Shown here piece after piece: positions 21,005-36,730 of a stretch of 64,000 nucleotides of DNA. The stretch comes from an uncultured Rhodobacteraceae bacterium (GTDB lineage Bacteria > Pseudomonadota > Alphaproteobacteria > Rhodobacterales > Rhodobacteraceae), in contig CALBSG010000005.1 of the NCBI GenBank assembly GCA_937927675.1, positions 21,727-85,726 on the forward strand, written 5' to 3'. Position 1 is the first letter of the stretch, and each line of letters starts with the position of its first letter. Both the position numbers and the translations under genes were made by a program. The notes below the pieces were generated by a model that did no database searches, was not told the DNA's origin, and saw nothing but the letters and a program-made list of their open reading frames with translations.

Positions 21005-21194
21005 ACCAATATGGCACGATCACTAACAGGATTTGCCGGCTCTGCCATCGGTTTTCTCGCATATGGTAAGCGCAACCTTGTTGGGCACCTTCCAAACCCG
21101 CGCCGGTTCTGACGGATTCCACGCGCGCGTTCAGGAGAGACTGGCCGGGAACCTTGGCCACCTTATCCCGGTCTTGCTGGCCGGTCGGCCATGG

Positions 21195-21216
21195 AAAAGG
21201 GGGGCCGCAGCCCCCC
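21195..21216 (-). terminator. Rho-independent terminator of the 66-aa stress protein gene
   Basis: On the minus strand: GGGGGGC-tgcg-GCCCCCC followed by TTTT. Confidence 0.75.
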
Positions 21217-21239
21217 GATCCGGCATAGCGATCGGTCAG

Positions 21240-21440
21240 TCACTTTTGGCCGTCGCCCTGCTGCTGATCGGTGCGGCCCGCTGGCTTTTCAGTGCCCATC
21301 TGGCCCGGACGATCCTTGGCCCCGGCACCCTGTTTCGGGTCGCCCTGCGTGGCTTGTGCAGTGCCACGGTCATTGGCCAGTTCTGTTTCCTTGGTCTGCC
21401 CCGTCTTTGATCCGGGACCCTGCTTGTTTTCCATGGTCAT
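21240..21440 (-). CDS. Small hydrophilic, Gly/Gln/Lys-rich stress-type protein (66 aa)
   Basis: ATG at 21440 preceded by AAGGAGAA. Low-complexity hydrophilic sequence 'MTMENKQGPGSKTGQTKE...'. EcfG-type motif upstream and its own terminator. Confidence 0.7.
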   Translation of the reverse strand: MTMENKQGPGSKTGQTKETELANDRGTAQATQGDPKQGAGAKDRPGQMGTEKPAGRTDQQQGDGQK

Positions 21441-21483
21441 GATGTTCTCCTTCATGCGGCGGCCAATCCGCCGATGCAGACAG

Positions 21484-21508
21484 AACCTGCCAAACACCGC
21501 AATGTTCC
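21484..21508 (-). promoter_or_regulatory. EcfG-type promoter motif GGAAC-N16-GGTT (minus strand) for the 66-aa gene
   Basis: Plus-strand GTTCC at 21504-21508 and AACC at 21484-21487, with a 16-nt spacer. It lies ~45 nt upstream of the ATG at 21440. Confidence 0.45.
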
Positions 21509-21514
21509 CGCCAC

Positions 21515-21539
21515 GGAACCCAAACTCCCGACCCACGTT
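21515..21539 (+). promoter_or_regulatory. EcfG-type promoter, perfect GGAAC-N16-CGTT
   Basis: GGAAC at 21515-21519 and CGTT at 21536-21539. It lies ~48 nt upstream of the ATG at 21587. Confidence 0.6.
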
Positions 21540-21586
21540 TAGATTCTGCAGCAAAGGGGCTGCATGATCTGAGATGAGGGATACTT

Positions 21587-21661
21587 ATGCGCAGCATCAT
21601 CTATCTTGTCGGTCTGGTGGTGGTCGTCATGGCGATCCTGTCCCTGTTCGGATTGCGGTGA
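21587..21661 (+). CDS. Unannotated 24-codon single-TM peptide MRSIIYLVGLVVVVMAILSLFGLR
   Basis: ATG at 21587 is 6 nt after GAGGGA (21575-21580); TGA at 21659-21661. Basic-hydrophobic-basic topology. A perfect EcfG motif lies upstream. It is below the 60-aa cutoff of the ORF track. Confidence 0.5.
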   Translation: MRSIIYLVGLVVVVMAILSLFGLR

Positions 21662-21854
21662 GGGCAGGATATGGCACATGTGGCAACCTTGGCGCCGCCC
21701 GCCGCACCGATCGATCTTGCGGGTGCGGTATGGGATCTTATCCTGATTGGGCGGTCTTGGGGCTGACGGTCAATTTGCGTCGCATCCGGCGCAATCAGGA
21801 AGCGGTTTTGCAAACCTTTGGTCAAAAGAGATCGCGCGCCCTTCGGGGGCATCG

Positions 21855-21879
21855 GGAACCAAATGGGGACGCCTGCGTT
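21855..21879 (+). promoter_or_regulatory. EcfG-type promoter, perfect GGAAC-N16-CGTT
   Basis: GGAAC at 21855-21859 and CGTT at 21876-21879, 33 nt upstream of the ATG at 21912. Confidence 0.6.
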
Positions 21880-21911
21880 GTCTCGGGAAGCCTTTGCCAC
21901 AGGAGACCATC

Positions 21912-22169
21912 ATGAAATCCATCGTTCTGCTTCTTGGCCTTATTGCGGCCCTTCCAGCCTGCATGCCGACCACGGATCCCGTCGTCGGCGGCGCCCTGAC
22001 CGGAGCAGTCCTCGGCGCAGCCGTCTCAGATGACGGCGACCGCGTTGAGGGTGCGCTAATTGGCGCGGGTGTGGGCGGCATTGCGGGCTCGCTCATCGGT
22101 CAATCCAGCCGGCCCGGCTATTGTGTCTATCGCGACATCAACGGCAACCGCTACACCGCGCGCTGCTAA
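21912..22169 (+). CDS. Glycine-zipper outer-membrane lipoprotein (17-kDa antigen / YMGG-like)
   Basis: ATG at 21912 after AGGAG (21901-21905). Lipobox 'LPAC'. Glycine zipper 'GGALTGAVLGAAV...GALIGAGVGGIAGSLIG'. Confidence 0.8.
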   Translation: MKSIVLLLGLIAALPACMPTTDPVVGGALTGAVLGAAVSDDGDRVEGALIGAGVGGIAGSLIGQSSRPGYCVYRDINGNRYTARC

Positions 22170-22322
22170 GGCGCGGGGTCGGGCAAATCTGGCCCAAAGC
22201 AAAAAGCGCCCAAATGCCGCATTGTGACAGGCAGCCCAACCTCCTGCGGGGTTGATCCCGAGGCGGCAGGGCCGGATCTGCGCGCATCGCAAAAGGGCAA
22301 TGGTCACATTGAAGCGAGGGCC

Positions 22323-22508
22323 TTACCGGCGCGGTGGGGCCTGATCACCGCAGGGCCGTTCGGCCTCGCTTGATTTGCCCACACCGTCTGGTCCGGCCTT
22401 TGCCAAACGCAGCAAGGCCCGGTCGAGCTTGTCCGAACCGCCCACAGGGATTGGGTAGGCCTGGGACAAAGGCCCCTGCAGATCCGTGACGAAATCTTGC
22501 GGGTTCAT
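22323..22508 (-). CDS. Hypothetical small protein (61 aa)
   Basis: ATG at 22508 preceded by AAAGGAAAAG. Reasonable GC3. EcfG-like motif ~80 nt upstream. No recognisable domain. Confidence 0.4.
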   Translation of the reverse strand: MNPQDFVTDLQGPLSQAYPIPVGGSDKLDRALLRLAKAGPDGVGKSSEAERPCGDQAPPRR

Positions 22509-22586
22509 GGCTTTTCCTTTCGTACCCGGATCGCGGCGCAATGCCGGGCCAATGCCTGTCATCGAAATCAAAAGCTTGCCCCTATG

Positions 22587-22611
22587 AACCCGGACCGTCC
22601 GAGATGGTTCC
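22587..22611 (-). promoter_or_regulatory. EcfG-type promoter motif GGAAC-N16-GGTT (minus strand)
   Basis: Plus-strand GTTCC at 22607-22611 and AACC at 22587-22590, with a 16-nt spacer. Confidence 0.4.
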
Positions 22612-22770
22612 TGCCGACCCGACCAGACCACACAGCGAGGGTCCCGCTGTTGCTAAAAGGGAACAGCACCCTGCGTCGGCGGCTCCCTGCCAAACCCTTT
22701 TGACGCTCGCGGAGCGCCCGTCATGGCGCCGCGTTTTTTCCACGATCCCATAAAGAAACCGGAGGCCCGT

Positions 22771-23340
22771 ATGGCGGCCGAGACTTTTTCGACTGAACTT
22801 GTCGACGTCATCCCCAGCCTGCGCGCCTATGCCCGCGCACTGACCCGCAATGCGGCTGATTGTGACGATCTGGTCCAAGAAACCTTGGCCAAGGCGCTGA
22901 AGAACCAGAGCCGATTTGAACACGGCACGCGGCTGAAATCTTGGCTGTTCACCATCATGCGCAACACCTTTTACACCGCCGCAAAGAAGTCTGCGCGGGA
23001 ACGGCCGGGGCTGGAGGACTGCGTGTCCGCCAGCGTGCTGGTGGAACCCGTGCATGATGCTGTCATCACCCACAAACGCCTGTTGGCGGCCATCGAACGC
23101 CTGCCGCAACAGTATCGCGAGATGCTGATCCTCGTCGTGATGCTGGGAGAAACCTATGAAGACGCCGCCCGCATATGCGGTTGTGCGGTCGGCACGGTCA
23201 AAAGCCGGGTCAACCGGGCGCGCAGGATGGTGATGCAAGAGATGGAGGAGGGGTCGCCAGCGCAGCCGCGAAACAAAGTGATACTTGCGAATCAACAAAT
23301 TGGCGCCGTGCCTCGGCAGGTCCAAATGCGACGGCCCTGA
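22771..23340 (+). CDS. ECF sigma factor, EcfG-like paralog (second copy)
   Basis: ATG at 22771 after GGAGG. 'LRAYARALTRNAADCDDLVQETLAKAL', 'WLFTIMRNTFY' and 'GTVKSRVNRARR' align by eye with the sigma at 31492. No adjacent NepR-like gene. Confidence 0.85.
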   Translation: MAAETFSTELVDVIPSLRAYARALTRNAADCDDLVQETLAKALKNQSRFEHGTRLKSWLFTIMRNTFYTAAKKSARERPGLEDCVSASVLVEPVHDAVITHKRLLAAIERLPQQYREMLILVVMLGETYEDAARICGCAVGTVKSRVNRARRMVMQEMEEGSPAQPRNKVILANQQIGAVPRQVQMRRP

Positions 23341-23360
23341 CACACGGCGCAATTTGGTGA

Positions 23361-23385
23361 AACGCGGTTGTCGCCGAATGGTTCC
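23361..23385 (-). promoter_or_regulatory. EcfG-type promoter, perfect GGAAC-N16-CGTT on the minus strand, pointing into the 3-prime end of the sigma gene
   Basis: Plus-strand AACG at 23361-23364 and GTTCC at 23381-23385, with a 16-nt spacer. It lies 21 nt downstream of the sigma stop codon. Confidence 0.45.
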
Positions 23386-23562
23386 CCCGAAAACGTCGCC
23401 CGCGCGGTATAAGGATTGGGCCACGACGTTGCGGGCGTCCTCATGGTGCGAAAACGGCGTTTTGCCGCTGGCCTATCGCGGGAAGGTTGTGACCCGAAGC
23501 GGATTTCACGCTAACGTGAGCCGAAGGTCCGTCTCAGGGCCTGCGAAGGGCGGAAAGTCAGA

Positions 23563-26500
23563 TTGGACAGCAATGCCATGATGGACGAGCCGGGTCTTGG
23601 GCGCGCGGATACCCCTGTGCGGCTGTTACAAGAGCGACTGTATCGCGCAGGTCAAGCAGCGCAGATGTTCCTATGGGAACATGACATGCGGACGGGGCGC
23701 CAAACTTGGGATGGGGCAGCTGCGGCCGTGATCGGCTGCGCCGAGGTGGATCTGCCCGACAGCGCGGCGGCGGCGTTGTTCTTTGTAGATCCTGCGGATC
23801 ACGGCCGGCTGACGGCCTTGTTCGCGGCCGCTATGGCCAAGCACCTTTCCAGTTTTGCCGCCGAGTTTCGCGGCATCGATGGGCGAATTTTCCACTCCGA
23901 GGCGCGGATTGAGTATGACGACACCGGCACGGCGATCCGCACCACCGGCGTGACGCGCGATATCACCGCCGAGGCAGAGGCACGACGCCGCCTTGCAGAA
24001 AGCGAAGCGCGGGCCCACCAACAGGCGGACGAGCTTCGCACGATTTACGAAGCGGCTCCGATCGGGCTTTGTGTGCTTGACCGTGACTTGCGGATCTTGC
24101 GGGTCAATGAGGCGATGCTGCACATGCATGGCCGGACCGCAGACGATTTCGTGGGACTGGGCCTTGCCGACGCGATGCCTGAAATCGCGCACGCGGCGGG
24201 TGACCGTATTGGACGGGTGCTGCAAGGCGAAAGCCTTCGCGGCCAGATCATCGCCTTGTCTTTACCGGACGATACGATTGGCGCGGCGGTGCCCGCCACC
24301 GTTCGCGTCAACTGGGTGCCGCTGCACGACGCCGCCGGGTGCGTACAAGGTGCTGTACTGACCACGGAAAACCTGACCTTGGAACGCAGCGCCGAGCAGG
24401 CGCTTGCCAATCGCGAGGCATTGCTGGCGGCCGTGGGCGACAGTTCCCCCGAAATCATCTATGCCAAAAACACCGAAGGCCGGATGCTTTATGCCAATGC
24501 CGCAACCTTGGCGATGGTCGGCCTGCCGCTCGATCAGGTGCTGGGCCGTACCAGCTATGAATTGATGCCGAATTCCGGCGGCAAGACACGGCTGATGTCC
24601 GATATGAAGGTGATGGCCACCGGACGCACCACCCGGCGAGATGAATCTGTCACCACGATAGACGGGCGTCACATGGTGCTGCACACCATCCGCGCGCCCT
24701 TGCGTGACGCCCAAGGCAAGCTCATCGGCCTTGTCGGCCTTTCCAGCGATGTAACCGCCCAGCGCGCCGCCGAAGCGCGGCAAGTGTTTTTGCTGCAACT
24801 GGCCGATCAGTTGCGCAGTGATCGTCGCGCTGCCTGGGTAACAGTACGCGCCTTGGGGCGGTTTTTTGGCGTGACGCGGGCGGGCTTTGCCAGCCATTCG
24901 GCCGATCATTCTGGCGAGCCAACCCTCTCAGATGCCTTTTTTGAAGAATGGAGTGACGGGATTGCCCGCAGCCTGACCCCGACCCAGGGGCTGACCAATC
25001 TGGGAGATTGGATCCGGGGCGAGCTGGCCCAAGGTCGCATCATCGAAATCGCCGATGTGCTGCACGACAATCGCATCAAAACCCCCGCTGCCTTTTTGGA
25101 ACATGGAACCCGCGCGGCCTTGATTGTGCCTTTGCTGCGCGATGGCGTCGTGGTCGCAACCTTGTATCTGGCCGATGCGCAGCCGCGCGACTGGCAGGCA
25201 GCAGACATCGCACTTGTGCGCGATGTGGCCGAGCGCAGTTGGGCCGCCGTGGAACGGGAACGCAGCGAACGGGCATTGCGCCAAGCCGAAGCCCGTCATC
25301 GCACGGTTCTGGAGGCCTCCGCTGCGGTGGTTTGGTCCACCGACACTGCGGGCGGTTTTGCGACACCGCAACCCAGTTGGGCCGCCTATACCGGGCAGAA
25401 CTGGCCGGACCATGCCGGACAGGGTTGGACCCGAATGATCCACCCCGATGACCTGCCGCGCCTGATGGACGACTGGCAGGCCGCGCTGGTCAAGGGCGGC
25501 GGGCATTACCAGTCGGGGGGCCGGATCTGGCACGGCCCAAGCGGGCGCTGGCGGCATTTTGTGGTGCGAGGTGCACCACTTGTCAGCCCGCTTGATGGCA
25601 AAGTGCAGGAATGGATTGGCGCGGTCACCGACATCGATGACCAGCGCAGAGCCGAAGATGACCTGCGCCTGAGTGAAACCCGGCTGCGGCTGGCGAAGGA
25701 GGCGGCTGGGCTGGGCATCTTCGAACTGGACCTTGGCAGCGGAGAACTCAGCTGGGATGCGGCCAGTCTGGCCATCTTGCGTGACAGCGGCAAAGGTCCG
25801 CCAACGCTGAATAGTTTTCTGCAACGTATTCACCCAAACGACCGCGCGGCGCTGCGTTCCGGCCTCGAAGGGGCGTTAAACGCACCCGCCGAAGGCCGCA
25901 TGTCGATTGAAATCCGCATTGACAGCGGGATGAACCTGCGGCCGATCTGGCTTTCGGTGATGGCGCAGGTCAGCCCTTGGCCCGCCCCAGAGCGCGGCCA
26001 AACCTCTGGCCCGGATCAGCCGCGGCAACCCAACAGTCCGCAGCGCAGAGATATCCGTCGGCTGGTTGGCTCTCTGCGTGACATCACCGCCCGCAAGCAC
26101 AAAGAAATCGCCTTGCAATCGCTGAACCGTCGCTTGGCCGACCGCATGGAACAGGCCGCGGCCGAGCGCGATCGGTTGTGGTCGGTGACAGACGACTTTC
26201 TGGCCACCACCGACAGCGCGGGCGTGTTGCACGAAGTCAGCGACAGTTGGGCGCGGATGCTGGGCCGCGCGCCCGGACAGCTGATCGGCAGGCCCTATGC
26301 CGCGATTTTTCACCCCGACGATCTGCCCCGGATCGAAGCGGCGCAGCACGAACTTTTCAAGCACGGCGGCTCTGCCTTTGTCGAGGCGCGGATACAGGCC
26401 GCTGATGGCGAATGGCGGCCCGTCAACTGGCGGCTCACGTCAGAACCTGATGTGGATCGGCTTTACGCGGTTGGTCGCGACATGACGGCCGACCATGCCC

Positions 26501-27687
26501 AAGCCCGCGCGCTGTCCGAGGCGCAGGCGCAGTTGCACGAGGCACAGAAGATTGAAACCATCGGCCAGCTGACAGGTGGTGTGGCGCATGATTTCAACAA
26601 CCTACTGGCCGCGATTCTGTCCAATCTTCGGGCGGCGCAGACCCGCACGACCGACCCGCGGCTGGCCCGTCTGGTTGCTGGCGCGATGGAGGCCGCAGAA
26701 CGCGGCGCCCTGCTGACAGGTCGGCTCTTGGCGTTTGCCCGGCGGCAAGAACTGTCCTCCACCGTGATTGACCTTGCCGCCATGATTGCGGGGCTGCACG
26801 ACCTTTTGGAAGGATCTCTTGGGCCGCAGATCACACTCTGCGATCAATTACCGGCCGATCTGCCACCGATCCGTGGCGATCTGAACCAGTTGGAACTTGC
26901 GCTTTTGAACCTTGCGGTGAACGCCCGCGACGCGATGCCCCAAGGTGGCACGCTGACGATCACGGCCCGCGCTGTCTCCATCTCGGCCAATGCAGCGCCC
27001 CTTTCGGACGCTGGCGATCTTCGGTTGGCACCCGGCGCCTATGTGGTTCTGGCGGTCACCGATACCGGCAGCGGCATGGATGAAACCACCCGTCGCCGCG
27101 CCACGGAACCCTTCTTCACCACCAAGGGGGTCGGCAAGGGCACCGGTCTTGGTTTATCGATGGTTTACGGGCTTGCCGTGCAATTGGGCGGCACAATGCT
27201 GCTGGAAAGCTTGCCGGGCCAAGGCACAACTGTTGCGCTTTGGTTGCCCGTGAATACCGAAGGCACGCAGGCCCCCGGCCCGGCACCATCCGGCACCCAG
27301 ACAGAAAATGACCAGCCTGCCGCCAGCCGGTTGTGCATCATGGTGGTCGACGATGATCCGCTGGTCGCGATGGGCACAAGTGCCATGCTGGAAGACTTGG
27401 GCCACCAGGTCGTCGAGGTGAACTCAGCGGCGGCTGCGTTGGATTTTCTGGCGAGCGCAGATCAGGTTGATCTGGTGCTGACCGACCATGCCATGCCCGG
27501 CATGACCGGCACCCAACTTGCCGCCGAGATGCGGGCTCGGGGCTGGCAGATCCCGGTCGCCCTTGCCACCGGCTATGCGGAGTTGCCGCAAAGCGAAGAC
27601 GATGTGCTGCCCCGGCTGGCCAAGCCCTTTGGCCATCAGGATCTGGTGCAGCTGATCCAGCGGCTCTGCGGTGCCAGTCGGGGCTGA
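23563..27687 (+). CDS. Multi-PAS/GAF hybrid sensor histidine kinase with C-terminal receiver
   Basis: 1374 aa with several PAS-like repeats and a GAF-like segment. H-box 'GGVAHDFNNLLAAI'. ATPase boxes 'NLAVNARDAM', 'DTGSGMD', 'GTGLGLSMV'. Receiver 'IMVVDDDPLV...DLVLTDHAMPGMTG...LAKPF'. Confidence 0.9.
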   Translation: MDSNAMMDEPGLGRADTPVRLLQERLYRAGQAAQMFLWEHDMRTGRQTWDGAAAAVIGCAEVDLPDSAAAALFFVDPADHGRLTALFAAAMAKHLSSFAAEFRGIDGRIFHSEARIEYDDTGTAIRTTGVTRDITAEAEARRRLAESEARAHQQADELRTIYEAAPIGLCVLDRDLRILRVNEAMLHMHGRTADDFVGLGLADAMPEIAHAAGDRIGRVLQGESLRGQIIALSLPDDTIGAAVPATVRVNWVPLHDAAGCVQGAVLTTENLTLERSAEQALANREALLAAVGDSSPEIIYAKNTEGRMLYANAATLAMVGLPLDQVLGRTSYELMPNSGGKTRLMSDMKVMATGRTTRRDESVTTIDGRHMVLHTIRAPLRDAQGKLIGLVGLSSDVTAQRAAEARQVFLLQLADQLRSDRRAAWVTVRALGRFFGVTRAGFASHSADHSGEPTLSDAFFEEWSDGIARSLTPTQGLTNLGDWIRGELAQGRIIEIADVLHDNRIKTPAAFLEHGTRAALIVPLLRDGVVVATLYLADAQPRDWQAADIALVRDVAERSWAAVERERSERALRQAEARHRTVLEASAAVVWSTDTAGGFATPQPSWAAYTGQNWPDHAGQGWTRMIHPDDLPRLMDDWQAALVKGGGHYQSGGRIWHGPSGRWRHFVVRGAPLVSPLDGKVQEWIGAVTDIDDQRRAEDDLRLSETRLRLAKEAAGLGIFELDLGSGELSWDAASLAILRDSGKGPPTLNSFLQRIHPNDRAALRSGLEGALNAPAEGRMSIEIRIDSGMNLRPIWLSVMAQVSPWPAPERGQTSGPDQPRQPNSPQRRDIRRLVGSLRDITARKHKEIALQSLNRRLADRMEQAAAERDRLWSVTDDFLATTDSAGVLHEVSDSWARMLGRAPGQLIGRPYAAIFHPDDLPRIEAAQHELFKHGGSAFVEARIQAADGEWRPVNWRLTSEPDVDRLYAVGRDMTADHAQARALSEAQAQLHEAQKIETIGQLTGGVAHDFNNLLAAILSNLRAAQTRTTDPRLARLVAGAMEAAERGALLTGRLLAFARRQELSSTVIDLAAMIAGLHDLLEGSLGPQITLCDQLPADLPPIRGDLNQLELALLNLAVNARDAMPQGGTLTITARAVSISANAAPLSDAGDLRLAPGAYVVLAVTDTGSGMDETTRRRATEPFFTTKGVGKGTGLGLSMVYGLAVQLGGTMLLESLPGQGTTVALWLPVNTEGTQAPGPAPSGTQTENDQPAASRLCIMVVDDDPLVAMGTSAMLEDLGHQVVEVNSAAAALDFLASADQVDLVLTDHAMPGMTGTQLAAEMRARGWQIPVALATGYAELPQSEDDVLPRLAKPFGHQDLVQLIQRLCGASRG

Positions 27688-27733
27688 GCCTGCAGCACTC
27701 TGCACACCTCCGCGGCGGCGTGCCCGGCTGAAG

Positions 27734-27759
27734 GGAACCCGACCGTGCATCCGGGCGTT
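27734..27759 (+). promoter_or_regulatory. EcfG-type promoter, perfect GGAAC-N17-CGTT
   Basis: GGAAC at 27734-27738 and CGTT at 27756-27759, 40 nt upstream of the ATG at 27799. Confidence 0.6.
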
Positions 27760-27798
27760 TCCTGATGGCTGACCATAGCACAACAGCAGGAGTGCAGC

Positions 27799-28278
27799 AT
27801 GACCAACACACCATTGAAAACCAAAATCGCCGAAACGGCAGAGTTGGCGGCCGGGAAGGCGCGTGAGGGTCTGGGCGCGGCGGCCGACAGGACAAAAGAT
27901 GCCGCAAAAACCATCAAGCAAGAGGCCTCTGCGCGGGTCACCAACACTGCAGAGGCGCTGCGCGAAGCAACCTCGGCGCGCGTCGACGACGCCCGCGAGA
28001 CCTTGGTGACCACCGGCGAACGTCTGGCGCGCAGTTTGCAAGACAGCGCCGAAGATCTGGATGGTCTGCAATCGCGGGTGCTATCGGGTTTGGCAGATGG
28101 CGTCACAGGCGCAACGGATCGCCTGCGACGCCACAGCCCCGGCGATCTCTTGTCGCGGACCCGCCGCCTTGCGCGCGACAATCCTGGTCTCTTTGCGGCA
28201 GGCGCGGCTTTGGCCGGATTTGCCTTGGCCCGGTTCCTGCGATCATCAGCTGAAGGCAAGGGTGGACCCTCGCCATGA
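27799..28278 (+). CDS. Tail-anchored helical stress protein (ElaB/YqjD/DUF883-like architecture)
   Basis: 159 aa. Ala/Glu/Arg-rich helical repeats with a C-terminal TM 'GLFAAGAALAGFALARFL'. First gene of a 3-gene unit. Confidence 0.55.
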   Translation: MTNTPLKTKIAETAELAAGKAREGLGAAADRTKDAAKTIKQEASARVTNTAEALREATSARVDDARETLVTTGERLARSLQDSAEDLDGLQSRVLSGLADGVTGATDRLRRHSPGDLLSRTRRLARDNPGLFAAGAALAGFALARFLRSSAEGKGGPSP

Positions 28279-28691
28279 CAACGGCCGACCACCATGATCG
28301 CCCCGACACCCTCACCGAGATTCTGGGCGAGGTGATGGCCGGGATAATGCGCTTGATCCGAGGAGAAGTTGCTTTGGCACAGGCCGAGGCGGCGGCAAGT
28401 GCCCATAAGGCGGCCTCTGCGCTGGTGCTGTTGGGCGTTGCGGCGATCTTTATCATGGCCGGGATCACCTGCCTTGCCGCTGGGGCGGTGTTGGGGCTGG
28501 TCACCGCCGGGCTGGCCCCGGTCTGGGCGACCTTGCTGGTCGGCGCGCTGCTTGCGCTTTTGGGTTGCGGCTATGGCCAGCATGCCCGCCGCTTGCTTTT
28601 GGATGCGACACGGGGCGCCCGCCGCCCGGCACGCAACCTTCAGCAAGATCTGGAAACCTTGCAAACCAGGGGGAAATCCGATGGCCTATGA
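28275..28691 (+). CDS. Holin-X / YqjE-like two-TM membrane protein
   Basis: 138 aa. 'RLIRGEVALAQAE' amphipathic N-terminus followed by two TM helices. Start overlaps the upstream stop. Confidence 0.55.
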   Translation: MTTADHHDRPDTLTEILGEVMAGIMRLIRGEVALAQAEAAASAHKAASALVLLGVAAIFIMAGITCLAAGAVLGLVTAGLAPVWATLLVGALLALLGCGYGQHARRLLLDATRGARRPARNLQQDLETLQTRGKSDGL

Positions 28692-29562
28692 CACGGACGA
28701 CATTGAACGCGAATTGCAAGCAGAGCGCGCGCGCCTTGGCGATAACCTTGGGAAGCTGAGGGATCGCTTGACCGCCAACGCGCTGCTGGAGGAGCTGAGC
28801 TGTACCTTGCGTGCGCACCTTGGCCCTCTGGCGCGGGGCGCCGACCAAGCGATCCGCGACAATCCCTTTGCGGCCGCGTTGACGGCTGCGGGACTGGCCT
28901 GGCTGGTCTTTGGCCGCACGCCCCGCCCCATCGTGCGAAGCGGCGAGATTTTGGCGGGGACAAAATACGAAGCCCTATCGCGCTGGGAAGACGAGGGTGG
29001 CCCGGTTGCGCCCTTGAAAGACCCCGATCTGAATTGGATCAGCGAAACCGACAGTCTGCGCGCCAAGGCAAGCGCGGCGCTTCGCCGTCTCGATCGCAAT
29101 GTTCGGGGCAAATCGACCACGGCCGCAGATGCACAGGCCCAGCGGGACCGCATCCTGAAAGAGCTTGCCCGCGACGCGAATACCGCATTTCGGCAGGGGC
29201 TGGAAACCTTGCCGCCCGAGGCCCAGACCCGCATCGCAACCGCCCGCGAGACGGCTTATCTTGCAGGGCAAAGCTTGGGGCGCAGGGCGGTTGCCACCGT
29301 TGAAGAAAGCCCCCTTTTGACGGGCTGTCTGGCACTGGGTCTGGGGGCCGCGCTGGCATCTGTCTTGCCGCAAAGTCAGATCGAGAACCGGGTTTTGGGG
29401 GCAGAGCGGGACCGATTGATGAAACAGGCCGATGATCTGCTGCGCAGCGAAAAGGCCCGTGCGGCCGACGTTCTCAGCGGTCTGGCCAATGCCATGCGCG
29501 AGGATTTTTCCGAAGCAACCACAACTCTGACCAAGGGCAATACCCAAGGTCGCACCGGTTAG
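28681..29562 (+). CDS. DUF3618-like protein
   Basis: The ATG at 28681 overlaps the upstream stop. N-terminal 'DTDDIERELQAERARLGDNLGKLRDRL' is typical of DUF3618 as I recall it. The track ORF start at 28369 is an out-of-context extension. Confidence 0.6.
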   Translation: MAYDTDDIERELQAERARLGDNLGKLRDRLTANALLEELSCTLRAHLGPLARGADQAIRDNPFAAALTAAGLAWLVFGRTPRPIVRSGEILAGTKYEALSRWEDEGGPVAPLKDPDLNWISETDSLRAKASAALRRLDRNVRGKSTTAADAQAQRDRILKELARDANTAFRQGLETLPPEAQTRIATARETAYLAGQSLGRRAVATVEESPLLTGCLALGLGAALASVLPQSQIENRVLGAERDRLMKQADDLLRSEKARAADVLSGLANAMREDFSEATTTLTKGNTQGRTG

Positions 29563-29591
29563 GCGGGTCGCAAAAAAGTTCCTCCAAGGTG

Positions 29592-29616
29592 GGAACCCAT
29601 CTGTGGTCTGAAGGTT
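29592..29616 (+). promoter_or_regulatory. EcfG-type promoter motif GGAAC-N16-GGTT in a non-coding gap
   Basis: GGAAC at 29592-29596 and GGTT at 29613-29616. No credible CDS lies downstream before the terminator at 29689-29732. Confidence 0.4.
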
Positions 29617-29622
29617 TCTCCG

Positions 29623-29732
29623 GCAGACGGTTGCAAGAAAGTCCCTGTCCTGCCGTCTGCAAAGGGTGCTTCCCTTCCCCCTTGCTCTGGCGCCGACAGT
29701 CTACCCTGGGGGTCGATGTCGGCGCCTTTTTT
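29623..29732 (+). ncRNA. Candidate GSR-dependent small RNA (~110 nt)
   Basis: Predicted architecture: 5-prime hairpin GCAGACGG (29623-29630) / CCGTCTGC (29653-29660); single-stranded C/U-rich linker 'CTTCCCTTCCCCCTT' (29670-29684); GC-rich terminator plus T6. The 5-prime end is inferred from promoter motif spacing only. Confidence 0.4.
29689..29732 (+). terminator. Rho-independent terminator
   Basis: GGCGCCGACA (29689-29698) / TGTCGGCGCC (29717-29726) followed by TTTTTT (29727-29732). Confidence 0.85.
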
Positions 29733-29781
29733 ATGCTCGCACACAGACGGCGTGGCGCCGGCCAGCGACGGGCGCCCAGCG

Positions 29782-30270
29782 CTATTCCAGCTTGCTGACA
29801 ATCGCTTGGGCAAAGGCTGCAATCATCGCATCATAGTAGACGCGGGTATCGGCTGGCAGGGTTTCCAGACTGACATCTGATGAGATCATCGGCTTGGCCT
29901 GATTGACGTCCACCAACAATTGATAAAAGCGGTTTTGCGATTTGTCGTCGTCGTTGCGCATGGTCACATCGCCGATGATCCGGGTGTCGGCCAGACCGAT
30001 TGCATCGGTAAAGCCGTTCGACAATTCAACCTCGGCAATGTCGATACTGATGTCGACGCCCTTTGTGGCAATCCTGTCGCCCAGCCGCGATGCAATCGCG
30101 CCCTCCAAGTCTTCATCCAGACGTGCCCAATAGGTGGCGGCGGTCGGGTTGGCGACAGCGGCAAGGTCGGTTGTCACATCAACCGATTTCACAGTCCAAG
30201 GGTCGGCCGCAAAGGCCATCGGAACCACAGCGAGGTTCACCGTGACAGCAAAGATCATGGAACGCAGCAT
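29782..30270 (-). CDS. Secreted hypothetical protein (162 aa)
   Basis: Signal peptide 'AVTVNLAVVPMAFA/ADP', acidic mature part, own perfect EcfG motif upstream. No recognisable domain. Confidence 0.65.
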   Translation of the reverse strand: MLRSMIFAVTVNLAVVPMAFAADPWTVKSVDVTTDLAAVANPTAATYWARLDEDLEGAIASRLGDRIATKGVDISIDIAEVELSNGFTDAIGLADTRIIGDVTMRNDDDKSQNRFYQLLVDVNQAKPMISSDVSLETLPADTRVYYDAMIAAFAQAIVSKLE

Positions 30271-30317
30271 AAGAAGCTCTCCTGTGTCATCGGGGGCCTC
30301 TGCCCCCTCGACAGGTT

Positions 30318-30342
30318 AACGCCGCTTGAGCGCAAGGGTTCC
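30318..30342 (-). promoter_or_regulatory. EcfG-type promoter, perfect GGAAC-N16-CGTT (minus strand)
   Basis: Plus-strand AACG at 30318-30321 and GTTCC at 30338-30342. It sits between the phyR stop (30361) and the 162-aa gene start (30270). Confidence 0.6.
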
Positions 30343-30360
30343 CCTTTGTACCCCGCGAGA

Positions 30361-31212
30361 TCAGGCGGTCAGCGTCTCGGTGCTGGCAAAGAACATCGCC
30401 TGTGACACGGCAGAATAGATCTGCTCTTCGGTAAAAGGCTTGGTGATAAGAAACGTCGGTTCCGGGCGCGTGCCGGTCAACAGTCGTTCAGGGAACGCGG
30501 TGATAAAGATCACCGGCAGCGCATTGAATTGCGACAGGATGTCATTGACAGCATCAATCCCCGAGGAGCGGTCCGCAAGCTGAATATCGGCGAGGATGAG
30601 ATCGGGGCGATCGCGAAGCGCCAGACTGACGGCTTCGCTGCGGGTGGCGGCAATGCCGGTCACTGCATGGCCCATTTCCTGCACGATGGTCGACAGGTTC
30701 ATCGCAATGATGGCTTCGTCCTCGATGACAAGCACCTTGCCCGCAACCGAGGCCTCCATTTCCTGCAAGGCGACCTGAATCAAATGGGCGACGTCCTTGG
30801 TTCCAATCTGCATGATCGCCGCGATTTCTGGCTGCGCAAACCCCTCGATCACATTCAAGAGCAAGGCTTCGCGTGTGTTCGGGGTCAGCATCGCCATATG
30901 GGCCTGCGCTCTGGCCGACAGCGGGGTGTCGGCATCGCCCACGGGCGCACCGGCACTGGCCCAGACCAGATGAAAAGCATGAAACAACCCGACCTTGGGA
31001 TCATCACCGGCACGCAGCACAGACGGATCTTCCAGAACGGCTTCAAGCGTGGCGGCGGCAAAGGAATCACCGCTGGTCTGACTGCCGGTCAAGGCACGGG
31101 CATAGCGGCGCAGATAGGGAAGATGGCCTGCGACAAGGCTGGCCAGATCAAGCCGCGGGCGCGTCGGCATCCCCTGCGCAGCCGATGACCCGGTTTGCGG
31201 CGCTGACGTCAT
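30361..31212 (-). CDS. phyR: PhyR anti-anti-sigma factor (sigma-like domain + receiver)
   Basis: ATG at 31212 after GGGAGAA. N-terminal ECF-sigma-like region ('LPYLRRYARALTGSQ...', 'REALLLNVIEGF') plus C-terminal receiver ('VLVIEDEAIIA...DLILADIQLAD...ITA'). Divergent from nepR-ecfG. Confidence 0.9.
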   Translation of the reverse strand: MTSAPQTGSSAAQGMPTRPRLDLASLVAGHLPYLRRYARALTGSQTSGDSFAAATLEAVLEDPSVLRAGDDPKVGLFHAFHLVWASAGAPVGDADTPLSARAQAHMAMLTPNTREALLLNVIEGFAQPEIAAIMQIGTKDVAHLIQVALQEMEASVAGKVLVIEDEAIIAMNLSTIVQEMGHAVTGIAATRSEAVSLALRDRPDLILADIQLADRSSGIDAVNDILSQFNALPVIFITAFPERLLTGTRPEPTFLITKPFTEEQIYSAVSQAMFFASTETLTA

Positions 31213-31239
31213 GATTTTCTCCCTTGGCGAACTTTTCTG

Positions 31240-31272
31240 GGAACCAAACACTGGGAAGATGAGTTTGGTTCC
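31240..31272. promoter_or_regulatory. Divergent, interlocked EcfG-type promoters of phyR and nepR-ecfG within the palindrome GGGAACCAAAC-N11-GTTTGGTTCCC
   Basis: Plus: GGAAC 31240-31244, N17, AGTT 31262-31265. Minus: GGAAC (plus-strand GTTCC 31268-31272), N17, TGTT (plus-strand AACA 31247-31250). Confidence 0.6.
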
Positions 31273-31297
31273 CTATAGTTAGAAAGATGCGTGAAAA

Positions 31298-31495
31298 ATG
31301 ATGGACACTGACATGTCTGACAAAGCGCCCAGATCCAGAATCAAGGATCAGATCGACGCGAACCTGAAGCGCATCTATGACGATATCACGAAAGAAGAAG
31401 TGCCGGAACGGTTCCGGCTTTTGCTGGACCAACTGCGCACAAAATCGCTGGAGGAACCTGCCCCGCCGCCCCACAGGACTGGGGATGAGCCATGA
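31298..31495 (+). CDS. nepR: NepR anti-sigma factor
   Basis: 65 aa. Core 'QIDANLKRIYDDITKEEVPERFRLLLDQL' matches the conserved NepR helix pair. Stop overlaps the ecfG start. Confidence 0.85.
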   Translation: MMDTDMSDKAPRSRIKDQIDANLKRIYDDITKEEVPERFRLLLDQLRTKSLEEPAPPPHRTGDEP

Positions 31496-32106
31496 CAAGG
31501 CAGCGGAACGACGCCGTATGTGACCCCGCTGCCGCGGCAGCCGACAAACCGGTGGAAGATTTCCGCGATCATCTGGTTGACCATCTTGGGCCGCTGCGGG
31601 CCTTTGCGCTCAGCCTGACACGCAGCAGGCCGGCCGCCGATGATCTGGTGCAGGATACCATCGTAAAAGCGTGGACCAATGCCGAGAAATTTGCGCCGGG
31701 CAGCAACCTTCAGGCTTGGCTTTTCACCATCCTGCGGAACACTTATTTCTCGACGATCCGCAAGCGCCGCCGCGAAGTGAGCGATCCCGATGGCAGCTAT
31801 GCCCTGCGCCTTTCCGTCAAACCCGATCATGATGGTCGTCTGGCCTACAGTGATTTTGAACGTGCCTTTGCCAAGCTTTCGGACGAACATCGCGAAGTGT
31901 TGATGCTGGTCGGTGCCTCCGGTTTTTCCTGTGAAGAGGCTGCCGAGATGATGGGCGTCGCCGTGGGCACCGTGAAAAGCCGGGCAAGCCGAGCCCGGTC
32001 GCGGCTGGCAAGATTGATGGGGCTGGCAGAGGGCGAAAGCGTGCTGACCGATGCGGATCAAACCACGATGGCGGTGACAGGACGACCCGGGGCGCATGCG
32101 GCATGA
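31492..32106 (+). CDS. ecfG: ECF sigma factor EcfG (general stress response)
   Basis: 204 aa. 'DLVQDTIVKAW', 'WLFTILRNTYFS', 'GTVKSRASRARSRL'. Synteny: phyR / nepR-ecfG-kinase. Confidence 0.9.
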   Translation: MTRQRNDAVCDPAAAAADKPVEDFRDHLVDHLGPLRAFALSLTRSRPAADDLVQDTIVKAWTNAEKFAPGSNLQAWLFTILRNTYFSTIRKRRREVSDPDGSYALRLSVKPDHDGRLAYSDFERAFAKLSDEHREVLMLVGASGFSCEEAAEMMGVAVGTVKSRASRARSRLARLMGLAEGESVLTDADQTTMAVTGRPGAHAA

Positions 32107-33857
32107 CGGCCGGGCGGGGGTCACGCGCGCAACCGGGCCAAGGCCGCCTTGCCTCGCGTTTTGCCGTGATCCTTGCGCTGGCACTGTTGCCGATCGGCGC
32201 GGCATCGGTGATGCAGACCCGCACACTGGAAGACGAATTGCGCAATCGGGCCGAAAGCGGATTGCTTGGTGCAACGCTGCAGGTCGCAGAACACGAAACC
32301 AGCATGATCCGCGCCGCGCAGGGCATGGTGGCCGCTTTGGCCCAAGCGCTGCCTGACGTTGCGGGCGACGCGGCACGCTGCCAGGATTTGATGCGGCGGC
32401 TGAAGGGAGAGATGCCACAAGCCACCCTGATCGCCTTTGTGCCGATGGACGGGCAGATGCGGTGTTCTTCTGTTGGGCGTGCCCATGACTTCACCGACAA
32501 TCCGAATTTCCTGTTTTTACGCGATCAGGAAAAGCCGTCGCTGCGGGTCAGCCGCAAGGGCAGCATCTCGCAGACCTCGATTCTGGCGGTGACCCATCCG
32601 GTGCGCGATGCGGCAGGGAAAAAGACCGGATACGCCGTCATTTCGCTGCCTCATAGCGCGTTGGAGGCCCAGCACGGTCACCTGTCACCAGACCCTCAGG
32701 GGCAACAGGACTTGCTGTTTTTCTGGAGCTTTGATCGCACTGGCGAGGTGATGACCGCCAACATTGATCTTGATGAGGCCGCCCGCCGTCTGCCGGCAGA
32801 ACCGCCGCTTGCCGAATTGGTTGGCCAGTCACGGCAGGTCTTTCAAGCACTGTCTCGGCTGGGAAACCTGCGCACCTATGCTGTCGCCCCGGTCATTAAG
32901 GGCGAACTTTACTTGATGAGCAGTTGGCGCAACGACGATAATCGGTTGATCGCGCAGGTGCGGCTGGCAAATTATCTGACCCCGCTCCTGATGTGGAGTG
33001 TCGGGCTTTTGGTGGCCGCTTGGGCCGCAGAACGGCTGGTCACGCGCCATGTGCGCACGTTGCACCGGGCGATCACCCGCTTTGCCCAAGGTGACAGGCG
33101 GTTGGAGCCGCCCCGGCTGCGCAGCGCCCCTGCTGAATTGCGCGATCTGGGTGCGGCTTACCGGCTGATGACCGAAAACATCACCCGCGGCGAGGCGGAA
33201 CTGGAAGACCTTTTGCACCAAAAGGAAGTCCTGCTGCGCGAGGTGCATCATCGGGTGAAGAACAACCTGCAACTGATCGCCTCGATCATGAATATCCAGA
33301 TTCGCAAAACCACCAGCCAAGAGGCCAAGTCGCTGCTGAAAGATCTCCGCGACAGGGTGATGAGCCTCGCCACCATCCACCGCGGCCTGTATCAGACCTC
33401 GGGGCAAGCCGACGTCACCGTGCGTGAATTATTTTCTGAAATCATTCGGCAAATCAGCGGCTTGCAATCCCCCGCCGGTGCGGCCGTCCATGTCGCGCTG
33501 GATGTTGACGAGCTGCGGCTTGCGCCGGAACAGGCGGTGCCCTTGGCGCTTTTGATGACCGAGGCCGTATCGGCAGCGCTGAATCAGCCCAACCGGCCAG
33601 AGCGGATCAGCGTGGCGCTGCACCAGTTGGACGAAAGCACGGCCAAACTTGAAGTAAACGCCGAGTATCCCGATGGCGTCGGGTCGGCGCAAAATGCGGA
33701 TACCGGGATTGGCCTGCAACTTATGACGGCGTTTGCACAACAACTGGGTGCAACACCAATGATCGAGGACCGACCGACACAAAGGGCAACCTGCGTGACG
33801 TTCCACCTTCAGGCCCTGCGGCGGCAAACGACACCTGACGAGCACCCCATAAAATAA
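32103..33857 (+). CDS. HWE/HisKA_2-type sensor histidine kinase (PhyK-like)
   Basis: 584 aa. TM, periplasmic domain, TM and HAMP-like linker. H-box 'HHRVKNNLQLIASIMNIQ'. ATG overlaps the ecfG stop. Confidence 0.85.
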   Translation: MTAGRGSRAQPGQGRLASRFAVILALALLPIGAASVMQTRTLEDELRNRAESGLLGATLQVAEHETSMIRAAQGMVAALAQALPDVAGDAARCQDLMRRLKGEMPQATLIAFVPMDGQMRCSSVGRAHDFTDNPNFLFLRDQEKPSLRVSRKGSISQTSILAVTHPVRDAAGKKTGYAVISLPHSALEAQHGHLSPDPQGQQDLLFFWSFDRTGEVMTANIDLDEAARRLPAEPPLAELVGQSRQVFQALSRLGNLRTYAVAPVIKGELYLMSSWRNDDNRLIAQVRLANYLTPLLMWSVGLLVAAWAAERLVTRHVRTLHRAITRFAQGDRRLEPPRLRSAPAELRDLGAAYRLMTENITRGEAELEDLLHQKEVLLREVHHRVKNNLQLIASIMNIQIRKTTSQEAKSLLKDLRDRVMSLATIHRGLYQTSGQADVTVRELFSEIIRQISGLQSPAGAAVHVALDVDELRLAPEQAVPLALLMTEAVSAALNQPNRPERISVALHQLDESTAKLEVNAEYPDGVGSAQNADTGIGLQLMTAFAQQLGATPMIEDRPTQRATCVTFHLQALRRQTTPDEHPIK

Positions 33858-34028
33858 GTTTTCAAAACCGGGAACCTTTCGCCGCGTTGAGGCATTTCCT
33901 CGTCACCTAACACAAGTCAAGAACCGCGGAATTCGTTCGGGCTAACGTAGCTTGGCGGCCCACCTGCCGATTTGAGGAATGAACGCTCCGGGACTGCGGG
34001 GGACGCCGCGGGATAGCTCGATCAAAGG

Positions 34029-34499
34029 TTGGAAATGCGCCTTCGCTTTCTGCTTTGGATATTTCTGTCGATGGCCCTGGGTCTGGCGGGGGCGGCGCGA
34101 TCTTCCATGCTTGCGACAGCGGGCTTCCATCAGATTCAGATCTGCGCGAATGGCCAAGAACAGGACCTTTTGCTGGATGCCGCTGGCAAGCCCGCCGCGG
34201 ATCGGCCCGCCTGCGGGCATTGCCCGGACTGTGTGCCCAGCCCACTTGCCTTGACCGAAACCCTTCCCGGCCTTTCACCTGTCACCACCGTCCGCGCGCT
34301 GCGCCCCCTGCGCCGTCAGCCACAGCCACCCAAGCAACACCGGGCGCCGCAACCACGCGGCCCCCCAACGCCATCCAACATCCGGCGAGTTTTCAACCGT
34401 CGCTGCGGGTATTCCCTGTCCCACCTGACTTTGGTCAAGTGGGATGCGGCACAGCCGTGGCAAAGCTCCGGGTGTATCCATTTGGACACCCGCCGATGA
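34029..34499 (+). CDS. NosC-like small Cys-motif protein
   Basis: 156-aa ORF with an N-terminal hydrophobic segment and a 'CGHCPDC' cluster. Stop overlaps the nosR ATG (ATGA, 34496-34499). Its position equals nosC in Paracoccus-type clusters. The C-terminal half is Pro/Arg-rich, so the extent is uncertain. Confidence 0.45.
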   Translation: MEMRLRFLLWIFLSMALGLAGAARSSMLATAGFHQIQICANGQEQDLLLDAAGKPAADRPACGHCPDCVPSPLALTETLPGLSPVTTVRALRPLRRQPQPPKQHRAPQPRGPPTPSNIRRVFNRRCGYSLSHLTLVKWDAAQPWQSSGCIHLDTRR

Positions 34500-36718: not shown

Positions 36719-36730
36719 AGGAGATTAAAC

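Follow-up and report, generated by a model that had tools for sequence, protein, structure and literature searches.

The 64-kb stretch of DNA analysed here (the window), from an uncultured bacterium of the Paracoccaceae (Rhodobacterales), contains a 12.7-kb island (21195-33857) in which the general-stress-response (GSR) regulators, phyR, nepR, ecfG and a sensor kinase, lie beside small genes preceded by promoter motifs of the type read by the sigma factor EcfG. Judged from sequence, the island is very probably (about 85%) a GSR locus with part of the sigma-EcfG regulon packed alongside. Such a physically clustered regulon had been proposed in a first-pass annotation of this DNA, and the proposal fits the enrichment of the motif, the intergenic position and geometry of its sites, and their conservation in a sister species and before orthologous genes. 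The GSR of Rhodobacterales has barely been characterised: a genetic study of Rhodobacter sphaeroides from 2018 stated that the rest of the order was unexamined, and it defined no regulon (PMC5830050).

Promoter motifs, regulatory core and conservation

The EcfG consensus GGAAC-N16-17-CGTT, on which the first-pass annotation relied, agrees with the published definition, in which the motif is given as GGAAC-N16-17-C/GGTT within about 100 nucleotides (nt) of start codons (PMC11580852; PMC6599016). Both strands were searched for a perfect pattern (GGAAC-N16/17-CGTT) and for a loose one in which the first -10 base was relaxed (GGAAC-N16/17-NGTT). Five perfect matches were found in the window, at 21515(+), 21855(+), 23385(-), 27734(+) and 30342(-), against 0.81 expected from dinucleotide-preserving shuffles, a value close to an earlier hand estimate of about one chance match per 64 kb; at least five matches were reached in 0/100 shuffles. 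Together with three GGAAC-N16-GGTT sites, at 21508(-), 22611(-) and 29592(+), and two interlocked sites between phyR and nepR, ten loose matches with canonical spacing were counted in the window. Every one lies within 21484-31272 (9.8 kb), and the remaining 51 kb contains no canonically spaced GGAAC-N16/17-NGTT match. Shuffled versions of the island yielded 0.60 +/- 0.79 loose matches, with a maximum of 4 (n = 500). The non-coding part of the island amounts to 1,584 bases (12.5%) and holds all ten sites, whose coordinates, strands, intergenic position and division into five perfect, three GGTT and two interlocked motifs reproduce the earlier list completely. Four further GGAAC...GTT matches in the window have N15 spacing and all fall within long open reading frames (ORFs).

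Eight of the ten sites stand 32-80 nt upstream of a start codon on the same strand, with a Shine-Dalgarno sequence of the AGGAG type present, and their targets are genes B, C, D and E, the H-I-J operon, gene K, phyR and nepR (Table 1). Of the other two, one precedes a candidate small RNA (sRNA), and one, the exception among motifs described earlier as oriented toward a small downstream gene, points antisense into the 3' end of ecfG2, a second EcfG-like gene. The list of ten canonical sites was sound, and a degenerate eleventh site before ecfG2 (22711-22735) had been overlooked. An exact fit to GGAAC-N16-17-[C/G]GTT was found for eight sites, the exceptions being those of phyR (TGTT), nepR (AGTT) and ecfG2 (GGAGC), and the extended form GGAACC is common to 9/10 sites. 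Several real sites also have a one-mismatch reading on the opposite strand (22660-22684(+), 27736-27761(-), 29594-29618(-), 22585-22609(+) and 23359-23383(+)), seemingly because the extended consensus GGAACC...GGTTTC is almost self-complementary. A repeat check of the cluster showed that the promoters are not copies of a repeat element.

The canonical phyR / nepR-ecfG-HWE-kinase core previously placed at 30361-33857 was confirmed by Pfam and NCBIfam matches. PhyR combines an N-terminal sigma-like part (PF22029, 91.8 bits; PF22233, 46.3 bits) with a C-terminal receiver (PF00072, 52.9 bits), and the first EcfG (EcfG1) contains Sigma70_r2, r4_2 and a PhyR_sigma2-like region 2. The nepR stop codon overlaps the start of ecfG (31492-31495), both genes having the same orientation, and the kinase start in turn overlaps the ecfG stop codon. 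The intergenic region between phyR and nepR carries a palindrome in which each half provides the -35 element of one promoter and, abutting it, the -10 element of the other. This GGAACCnAACG...CGTTnGGTTCC element, 31-33 base pairs (bp) long, occupies the same place in 79 of 81 loci (80 relatives and the window). The pair is a variant of a known palindromic arrangement and not a new one.

The relatives compared were 80 Paracoccaceae phyR loci (best PhyR identity, 76%), besides a sister species whose ecfG2 is 89% identical. Among eight promoters shared with the sister species, 1/64 of the GGAAC/GTT bases and 30/122 of the spacer bases had changed (Fisher p = 1.6e-5); since the -35/-10 bases stay while the spacers diverge, the motifs are probably under selection. 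The sister species has 12 motifs over 15.8 kb; some of its cargo is of another kind, namely DUF2934, alpha-amylases, a PRC-barrel protein and a short-chain dehydrogenase. A synteny comparison, which had been put forward as a check, showed that the core and gene K are syntenic and that the clustering of motifs recurs in the 80 loci, which contain a mean of seven motifs per 20 kb. Their motif density is 0.2-0.6 per kb, 5-15 times the 0.039 of shuffled sequence; the dense zone reaches 8-10 kb on the kinase side, and background is attained by about 7 kb on the other.

Clustering of the ORFs downstream of all these motifs revealed recurrent families, whose names were judged by eye from representative sequences without a Pfam scan. 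They include a DUF1328/YtjA-like membrane protein of 57 amino acids (aa; 47 loci), proteins like CsbD (36 loci) and Dps (20 loci), a PLDc_N-like peptide (25 loci) and a protein of about 296 aa that is maybe PRC-barrel-like (15 loci); by their sequences the DUF1328/YtjA-, CsbD-, Dps- and PRC-barrel-like neighbours look like classic GSR cargo. Clustering of predicted EcfG targets around phyR, with rapidly changing cargo, is a trait of the family Paracoccaceae and not a peculiarity of this genome.

Table 1. Features of the island in window coordinates
Feature	Position	Strand	Evidence or remark
Hairpin resembling an intrinsic terminator, GGGGGGCTGCGGCCCCCC + TTTT, at the end of gene B; left cluster edge	21199-21216	-	
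Gene B, 66 aa, strongly hydrophilic, Gly/Gln/Lys-rich (MTMENKQGPG...)	21240-21440	-	AAGGAG 7 nt 5' of ATG
B promoter, GGAAC-N16-GGTT, 43 nt 5' of ATG	21484-21508	-	motif search
C promoter, perfect GGAAC-N16-CGTT, 47 nt 5' of ATG	21515-21539	+	motif search
Gene C, 24-aa hydrophobic single-helix peptide MRSIIYLVGLVVVVMAILSLFGLR	21587-21661	+	GAGGGA ribosome-binding site
D promoter, perfect GGAAC-N16-CGTT, 32 nt 5' of ATG	21855-21879	+	retained in sister species with N17 spacer
Gene D, 85-aa lipoprotein, glycine-zipper domain	21912-22169	+	Gly-zipper_YMGG, Rick_17kDa_Anti
Gene E, 61-aa orphan protein, divergent from ecfG2	22323-22508	-	gene call
E promoter, GGAAC-N16-GGTT, 78 nt 5' of ATG	22587-22611	-	motif search
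ecfG2 promoter, degenerate GGAGC-N16-CGTT, 35 nt 5' of ATG 22771	22711-22735	+	homologous site in sister species
ecfG2, EcfG-like extracytoplasmic function (ECF) sigma paralog	22771-23340	+	best families as for EcfG1, below cut-off
Antisense EcfG-type motif, perfect, 21 nt past ecfG2 stop codon	23361-23385	-	motif search
Hybrid histidine kinase, 1369-1374 aa	23578-27687	+	several PAS, GAF, HisKA, HATPase_c, receiver
H-I-J operon promoter, perfect GGAAC-N17-CGTT, 39 nt 5' of ATG	27734-27759	+	motif search
Gene H, 159 aa, hydrophilic helical N-terminal part, C-terminal hydrophobic anchor	27799-28278	+	
Gene I, 138-aa membrane protein	28275-28691	+	Pfam Phage_holin_3_6 (Holin-X) PF07332, 55.4 bits, cut-off 28.4
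Gene J, 293 aa	28681-29562	+	weak N-terminal DUF3618, 21.7 bits, below cut-off 24.9
sRNA promoter, GGAAC-N16-GGTT	29592-29616	+	core conserved in sister species
Candidate GsrN-like sRNA, about 110 nt	29623-29732	+	fold, terminator, no ORF
Gene K, 162-aa secreted (signal-peptide) protein, directly downstream of phyR	29782-30270	-	
K promoter, perfect GGAAC-N16-CGTT, 47 nt 5' of ATG	30318-30342	-	motif search
phyR, anti-anti-sigma response regulator	30361-31212	-	PhyR_sigma2, PhyR_sigma-like, Response_reg
Palindrome GGGAACCAAAC-N13-GTTTGGTTCCC, two fully overlapping divergent EcfG-type promoters	31239-31273		motif search
nepR promoter, -10 AGTT	31240-31265	+	inside phyR/nepR palindrome
phyR promoter, -10 TGTT	31247-31272	-	inside phyR/nepR palindrome
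nepR, anti-sigma factor	31298-31495	+	Pfam NepR PF18557, 47.3 bits
ecfG (EcfG1), ECF sigma factor	31492-32106	+	NCBIfam PRK12546, 278.4 bits, cut-off 270
HisKA_2/HWE sensor histidine kinase, 584 aa; right cluster edge	32103-33857	+	PF07568, 79.5 bits; PF07536 HWE_HK, 36 bits

ecfG2, the antisense site and rival explanations

The presence of a second EcfG paralog in the cluster, already suggested by the first-pass annotation, was borne out by a 42% identity between EcfG2 and EcfG1. The score of EcfG2 against PRK12546 (170.6 bits) is under the cut-off of 270, and the protein is therefore called EcfG-like only. Gene callers start ecfG2 at an upstream ATG (22723). The gene belongs to an orthologue group common in Paracoccaceae, and no more than six contigs, all short and distant, came back from a metagenome scan with ecfG2 as query. 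In the sister species the site before ecfG2 is a perfect GGAAC-N16-CGTT, 36 nt upstream of the gene, and more distant orthologues have a site of the canonical pattern in the equivalent position. Two other candidates in this region were discarded: a terminator-like hairpin at 22714-22729 is really the spacer of the ecfG2 promoter, and a GGAAC-N16-GGCT at 22660-22684 has a non-canonical -10 element in both the window and the sister species.

The position of ecfG2 in mid-cluster, with an EcfG-type promoter of its own, raises another explanation, namely that the promoters are read mainly by EcfG2 or a similar ECF sigma factor instead of EcfG1 and that the cluster is a second-tier sub-regulon. This is possible at odds of about one in four, and the extended GGAACC in 9/10 sites could be taken in its favour, as could the documented hierarchies of EcfG paralogs with overlapping promoter specificity in Sphingopyxis granuli and Rhizobium etli (PMC7083833; PMC3892343). 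However, the same motif serves the K promoter and the phyR/nepR pair in genomes with no ecfG2 near the phyR locus, the cluster contains no other ECF sigma gene, and the specificities of EcfG1 and EcfG2 are inseparable by sequence.

The antisense motif behind ecfG2 keeps its -35 and -10 elements and its orientation in the sister species, where 4/17 spacer bases differ, and no credible ORF was found downstream of it. A somewhat less probable alternative concerns this site alone: it might be a near-palindromic bidirectional promoter, the plus reading of which, GAAAC-N16-GGTT (23359-23383), drives the large hybrid kinase. Only a single mismatch separates that reading from the motif, palindromic EcfG sites are reported to fire both ways in Erythrobacter litoralis (bioRxiv 10.1101/641647), and the kinase is otherwise without a recognisable promoter. 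On the other hand, the kinase start is about 195 nt away, which is far for this promoter class, and one-mismatch mirrors of the same kind are found at the promoters of H and the sRNA, apparently as a consequence of the extended consensus. Because the sister species retains a perfect minus-strand motif while the mirror reading falls from one mismatch to two (AAAAC), an EcfG-dependent antisense transcript is favoured over a bidirectional kinase promoter. The kinase itself, a neighbour of ecfG2 in just this species and the sister species, lacks a canonical EcfG motif; the suggestion that it forms part of the GSR regulon found no support beyond its location in the cluster. An imperfect 15-bp inverted repeat was also observed around the ecfG2 stop codon (23296-23358, CAAATTGGCGCCGTG ... 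CACGGCGCAATTTGG). A hairpin is predicted from it in both the 3' end of the ecfG2 mRNA and the putative antisense RNA (z = -2.4), and it is not clearly conserved in the sister species.

A horizontally acquired or mobile genomic island would be in keeping with a gene content that varies even between sister species, as H-I-J, the sRNA and K are absent from one sister-species contig, which has other cargo upstream. Nevertheless, this explanation was rejected as highly improbable on account of the flat GC content (0.59-0.64 over the cluster and its flanks) and the absence of a tRNA gene and of flanking repeats; moreover, there is no integrase or transposase among the genes annotated at 18208-38689, and the core and K keep their synteny family-wide. 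Finally, although about three loose GGAAC-N16/17-NGTT matches per 64 kb are expected by chance and N15-spaced look-alikes exist in coding DNA, there is almost no probability left that the motif cluster is an artefact of chance or of composition in GC-rich intergenic DNA, as all ten canonical motifs fall in 9.8 kb, within 1.6 kb of non-coding DNA and in the correct orientation to genes, more than four matches arose in 0/500 island shuffles, the core bases are kept against spacer divergence, and the same motif precedes orthologues in dozens of genomes.

Several points weigh against interpreting the island as a GSR locus with an adjoining part of the EcfG regulon. Motifs of the GGAAC...GTT type serve other ECF sigma groups too. 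Both autoregulatory promoters have a non-consensus -10 element (AGTT, TGTT), and that of ecfG2 has GGAGC. By sequence comparison, genes B, C and E could be recent or non-functional ORFs, since their homologues are undetectable beyond the species or its sister, and for homologues of H just 5/17 loci have a motif at a distance of up to 250 nt from the extrapolated start. In addition, the role of PhyR in R. sphaeroides is narrow and centred on membrane stress (PMC5830050); because this is the only genetically studied species of Rhodobacterales, a broad, "general" response is an assumption.

Candidate small RNA and proposed mechanism

A putative sRNA had been listed among the contents of the cluster, and the intergenic element between J and K indeed combines an EcfG-type promoter with a predicted three-hairpin fold, a terminator and conservation in the sister species. 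The loop GUCCCUGUCCU of its 5' stem-loop is C/U-rich, and a small hairpin, a single-stranded segment CUUCCCCCUUGCUC and a strong terminator hairpin followed by U6 complete the element, which has a predicted minimum free energy of -51.6 kcal/mol (z = -3.84); its promoter is 745 nt from the phyR stop codon. Identity to the sister-species counterpart exceeds 90% over the whole element, the sole change in the 5' stem turning an A-U into a G-U pair. In four relatives (L003, L007, L013 and L027), an EcfG-type promoter is followed by a predicted RNA with the same three-hairpin layout and unrelated stem sequences. These share the loop motif GUCCCU..CCUG with the sRNA of the window, in which further CCCU stretches occur. 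The same layout follows an EcfG motif in the sister-species locus L094, and L010 was identified by motif search alone, its RNA being left unfolded. The sRNA promoter is convergent on the 3' end of K in L007, L010, L013 and L027. Over all loci compared, 6/18 occurrences of the loop motif are within 90 nt downstream of an EcfG motif. Searches by similarity were less informative: Rfam 15 (E <= 1, 20000-35000) gave only a spurious partial raiA match inside ecfG2, the sRNA region had no blastn matches among the 80 loci, and from a poorly registered MAFFT alignment of the six sRNA candidates RNAalifold recovered only the terminator and part of the first stem-loop.

GsrN-like RNAs have been predicted in other orders from an EcfG-type promoter and proximity to the GSR locus, which they typically adjoin (Tien et al. 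2018, PMC5869019); the main text of that paper contains no word starting with "Rhodobacter". Like the sigma-T-dependent GsrN of Caulobacter, the present candidate has an EcfG-type promoter, adjacency to phyR/ecfG, an intergenic position, a terminator and a structured RNA with a predicted exposed C-rich 5' loop, so that by these features it qualifies as GsrN-like. Unlike GsrN, it has the loop GUCCCU..CCUG, and no sequence homology to GsrN is shown.

The partner switch formed by PhyR, NepR and EcfG is an established system, and the mechanism proposed for the island is based on it. Stress-sensing HWE/HisKA_2 kinases, the one at 32103-33857 among them, would phosphorylate PhyR, and phosphorylated PhyR would bind NepR and set EcfG free. 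Free EcfG would then take RNA polymerase to the GGAAC-N16/17-[C/G]GTT promoters, so that phyR and nepR-ecfG-kinase would be auto-activated through the overlapping divergent pair, and B, C, D, E, H-I-J, K, ecfG2 and the GsrN-like sRNA would be co-induced. The outcome might be protection of envelope and membrane, with the sRNA adding a post-transcriptional arm and ecfG2 a second sigma tier, which the antisense site may temper. A more tentative extension, considered unlikely, is a fluid "regulon neighbourhood" around phyR in Paracoccaceae that includes two undescribed regulatory RNAs, namely GsrN-like sRNAs forming a family with CCCU-rich loops and an EcfG-driven antisense transcript over the ecfG2 3' end. 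In that case the master sigma factor would both activate ecfG2, through the promoter upstream of the gene, and hold it back, through the convergent antisense one, making up an incoherent feed-forward loop in which one promoter motif is used twice.

The island resembles the GSR loci of Methylobacterium extorquens, Caulobacter crescentus (sigT-nepR/phyR), Sphingomonas melonis and Sinorhizobium meliloti (rpoE2) in the divergence of phyR from nepR-ecfG, the adjacent HWE/HisKA_2 kinase, the EcfG promoters before both regulatory units, the motif itself and targets that are small, mostly uncharacterised envelope or hydrophilic proteins. Unlike these model organisms, in which the regulon has been described genome-wide, it shows 10-11 promoters within 10 kb beside the regulators, and its cargo (K, H-I-J, B, C and E) is largely without named families. 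In Caulobacter, sigU is under the control of sigT, a hierarchy of EcfG paralogs. An EcfG-like paralog behind an EcfG-type promoter is thus shared with Caulobacter, Sphingopyxis granuli TFA (EcfG1/EcfG2, PMC7083833) and Rhizobium etli (PMC3892343), whereas the conserved antisense motif into the 3' end of the paralog, the lack of a recognisable NepR2 and the linkage of ecfG2 to a kinase of 1369-1374 aa, found just in this species and its sister, set the island apart.

A palindromic GGAAC-N17-GTTCC between nepR-ecfG and gsrP in E. litoralis has bidirectional activity backed by RNA-seq (bioRxiv 10.1101/641647), and the idea of such a site is credited there to Staron et al. 2009. The element of the window is likewise single, short and symmetric between divergent GSR genes, and its bidirectional reading is predicted; it differs from the single 27-bp site of E. 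litoralis in comprising two offset, fully overlapping promoters over 31-33 bp. It serves phyR and nepR, whereas the E. litoralis site serves nepR and a kinase and the phyR gene of that organism has no EcfG motif. In R. sphaeroides, a member of the same order, RSP_1271-1274 have their core arranged in the same way, a nepR-like gene, ecfG and a kinase diverging from phyR; a gene of the Crp/Fnr family follows phyR, and no cluster of target promoters is described there (PMC5830050).

Known counterparts therefore exist for autoregulatory EcfG promoters at GSR loci, palindromic bidirectional sites, GSR-linked sRNAs and EcfG-controlled paralogs. What appears to be undescribed in the literature searched is how dense the cluster is and how general in Paracoccaceae, together with this sRNA family and the conserved antisense site behind ecfG2. 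The understanding of the GSR mechanism is unchanged by the locus, which is of value mainly as an efficient way into a regulon that has been little studied: the window and the 80 loci provide a compact set of candidate EcfG targets (a phyR-linked secreted protein, a membrane operon, a small RNA and a second sigma factor that an antisense site may restrain), and the neighbourhood of phyR is a practical spot for finding GSR cargo through comparative genomics.

Cargo genes and surroundings

Among the Paracoccaceae loci compared, K is the most consistently phyR-linked EcfG target: its homologues adjoin phyR in 38/80 loci (at about 10930-11450 in L001, L007, L013, L053 and others), and a same-strand motif is present within 250 nt upstream in 38/38. 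No Pfam or NCBIfam family was found for K. Its AlphaFold model (pLDDT 78.7) matched envelope lipoproteins of the LptE/PelC/DUF330 type in the PDB with TM-scores of 0.3-0.45, which are weak, and no assignment was made.

The genes of the H-I-J operon are tightly packed, the start of I overlapping the H stop codon and J overlapping the end of I. They had been described as a tail-anchored/holin-like/DUF3618 triad; the Holin-X part of this description stands, and the DUF3618 part is weak, J having scored 21.7 bits against a gathering cut-off of 24.9. H did not reach the cut-off of any Pfam or NCBIfam family, DUF883 included. The triad is phyR-linked in about 20 related loci, on the opposite side of phyR. 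In Escherichia coli, the stationary-phase membrane proteins encoded by yqjCDEK/elaB of the RpoS regulon combine a tail-anchored hydrophilic protein, a membrane protein of the DUF1469/Holin-X type and a third small protein in one operon. H-I-J has the Holin-X partner; on the other hand, DUF883 is not matched in H and J has only a weak DUF3618, so that the resemblance is a functional or architectural one and not demonstrated homology. In the sister species, a fully overlapping palindromic pair GGAACCAGACCGCGTGGCCAGACGTTCC was observed before the H operon (L094, 8390-8417); it would also face a divergent 128-aa gene and constitute a second bidirectional EcfG instance.

On the left-hand side of the island, the B and C promoters are back-to-back, with 6 nt separating their -35 elements. 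The ORFs of the island are supported by independent gene calls on metagenome contigs with an identical EcfG2 protein, which place this uncultured organism in many metagenomes; B was called there as 66 aa too. The exception is the 24-aa peptide C, which is not called by gene finders and was located by a regex search in its own species only. Pfam and NCBIfam searches gave no family for B, whereas D proved to be a glycine-zipper lipoprotein, as previously annotated. The E promoter keeps its core in the sister species, with 8/17 spacer bases changed. B, C, D and E had no tblastn matches in the 80 phyR loci, and only six relatives of E were found among 1.8 billion representative proteins.

Small ORFs divergent from distant ecfG2 orthologues (L097 7631-7804, L096 5579-5878, L081 and L095) encode a NepR-like "EPxPxxLxxLAxxL" and align to NepR in register (hhalign P = 0.018). 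E occupies the same position and is a possible NepR2 that could not be linked to NepR: it did not match Pfam NepR even at E <= 10, hhalign against 70 NepR sequences was not significant, and its homologues are too few.

The left flank of the island consists of sugar-metabolism genes, and nosR (FMN_bind, Fer4_5) and nosZ (nitrous-oxide reductase propeller, cupredoxin) lie on the right (34055-38689, +), beginning 200 nt past the GSR kinase; the boundaries set earlier are sound for this reason. In the 80 relatives, the side held here by nosR/nosZ is usually occupied by more genes with EcfG motifs. In many of them, a minus-strand EcfG motif directly follows the HWE kinase, about 2.6 kb upstream of phyR (L001 7395-, L002 7425-, L011 7407-). 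It precedes a protein of about 520 aa (21 loci); the motif is not found in the window, where nosR takes that place. A further arrangement was observed on a sister-species contig, L093 (12931-13703), which lacks H-I-J, the sRNA and K: directly behind the big kinase stands an EcfG motif that points into a 229-aa phyR without its receiver domain, the result either of natural deletion or of an assembly error.

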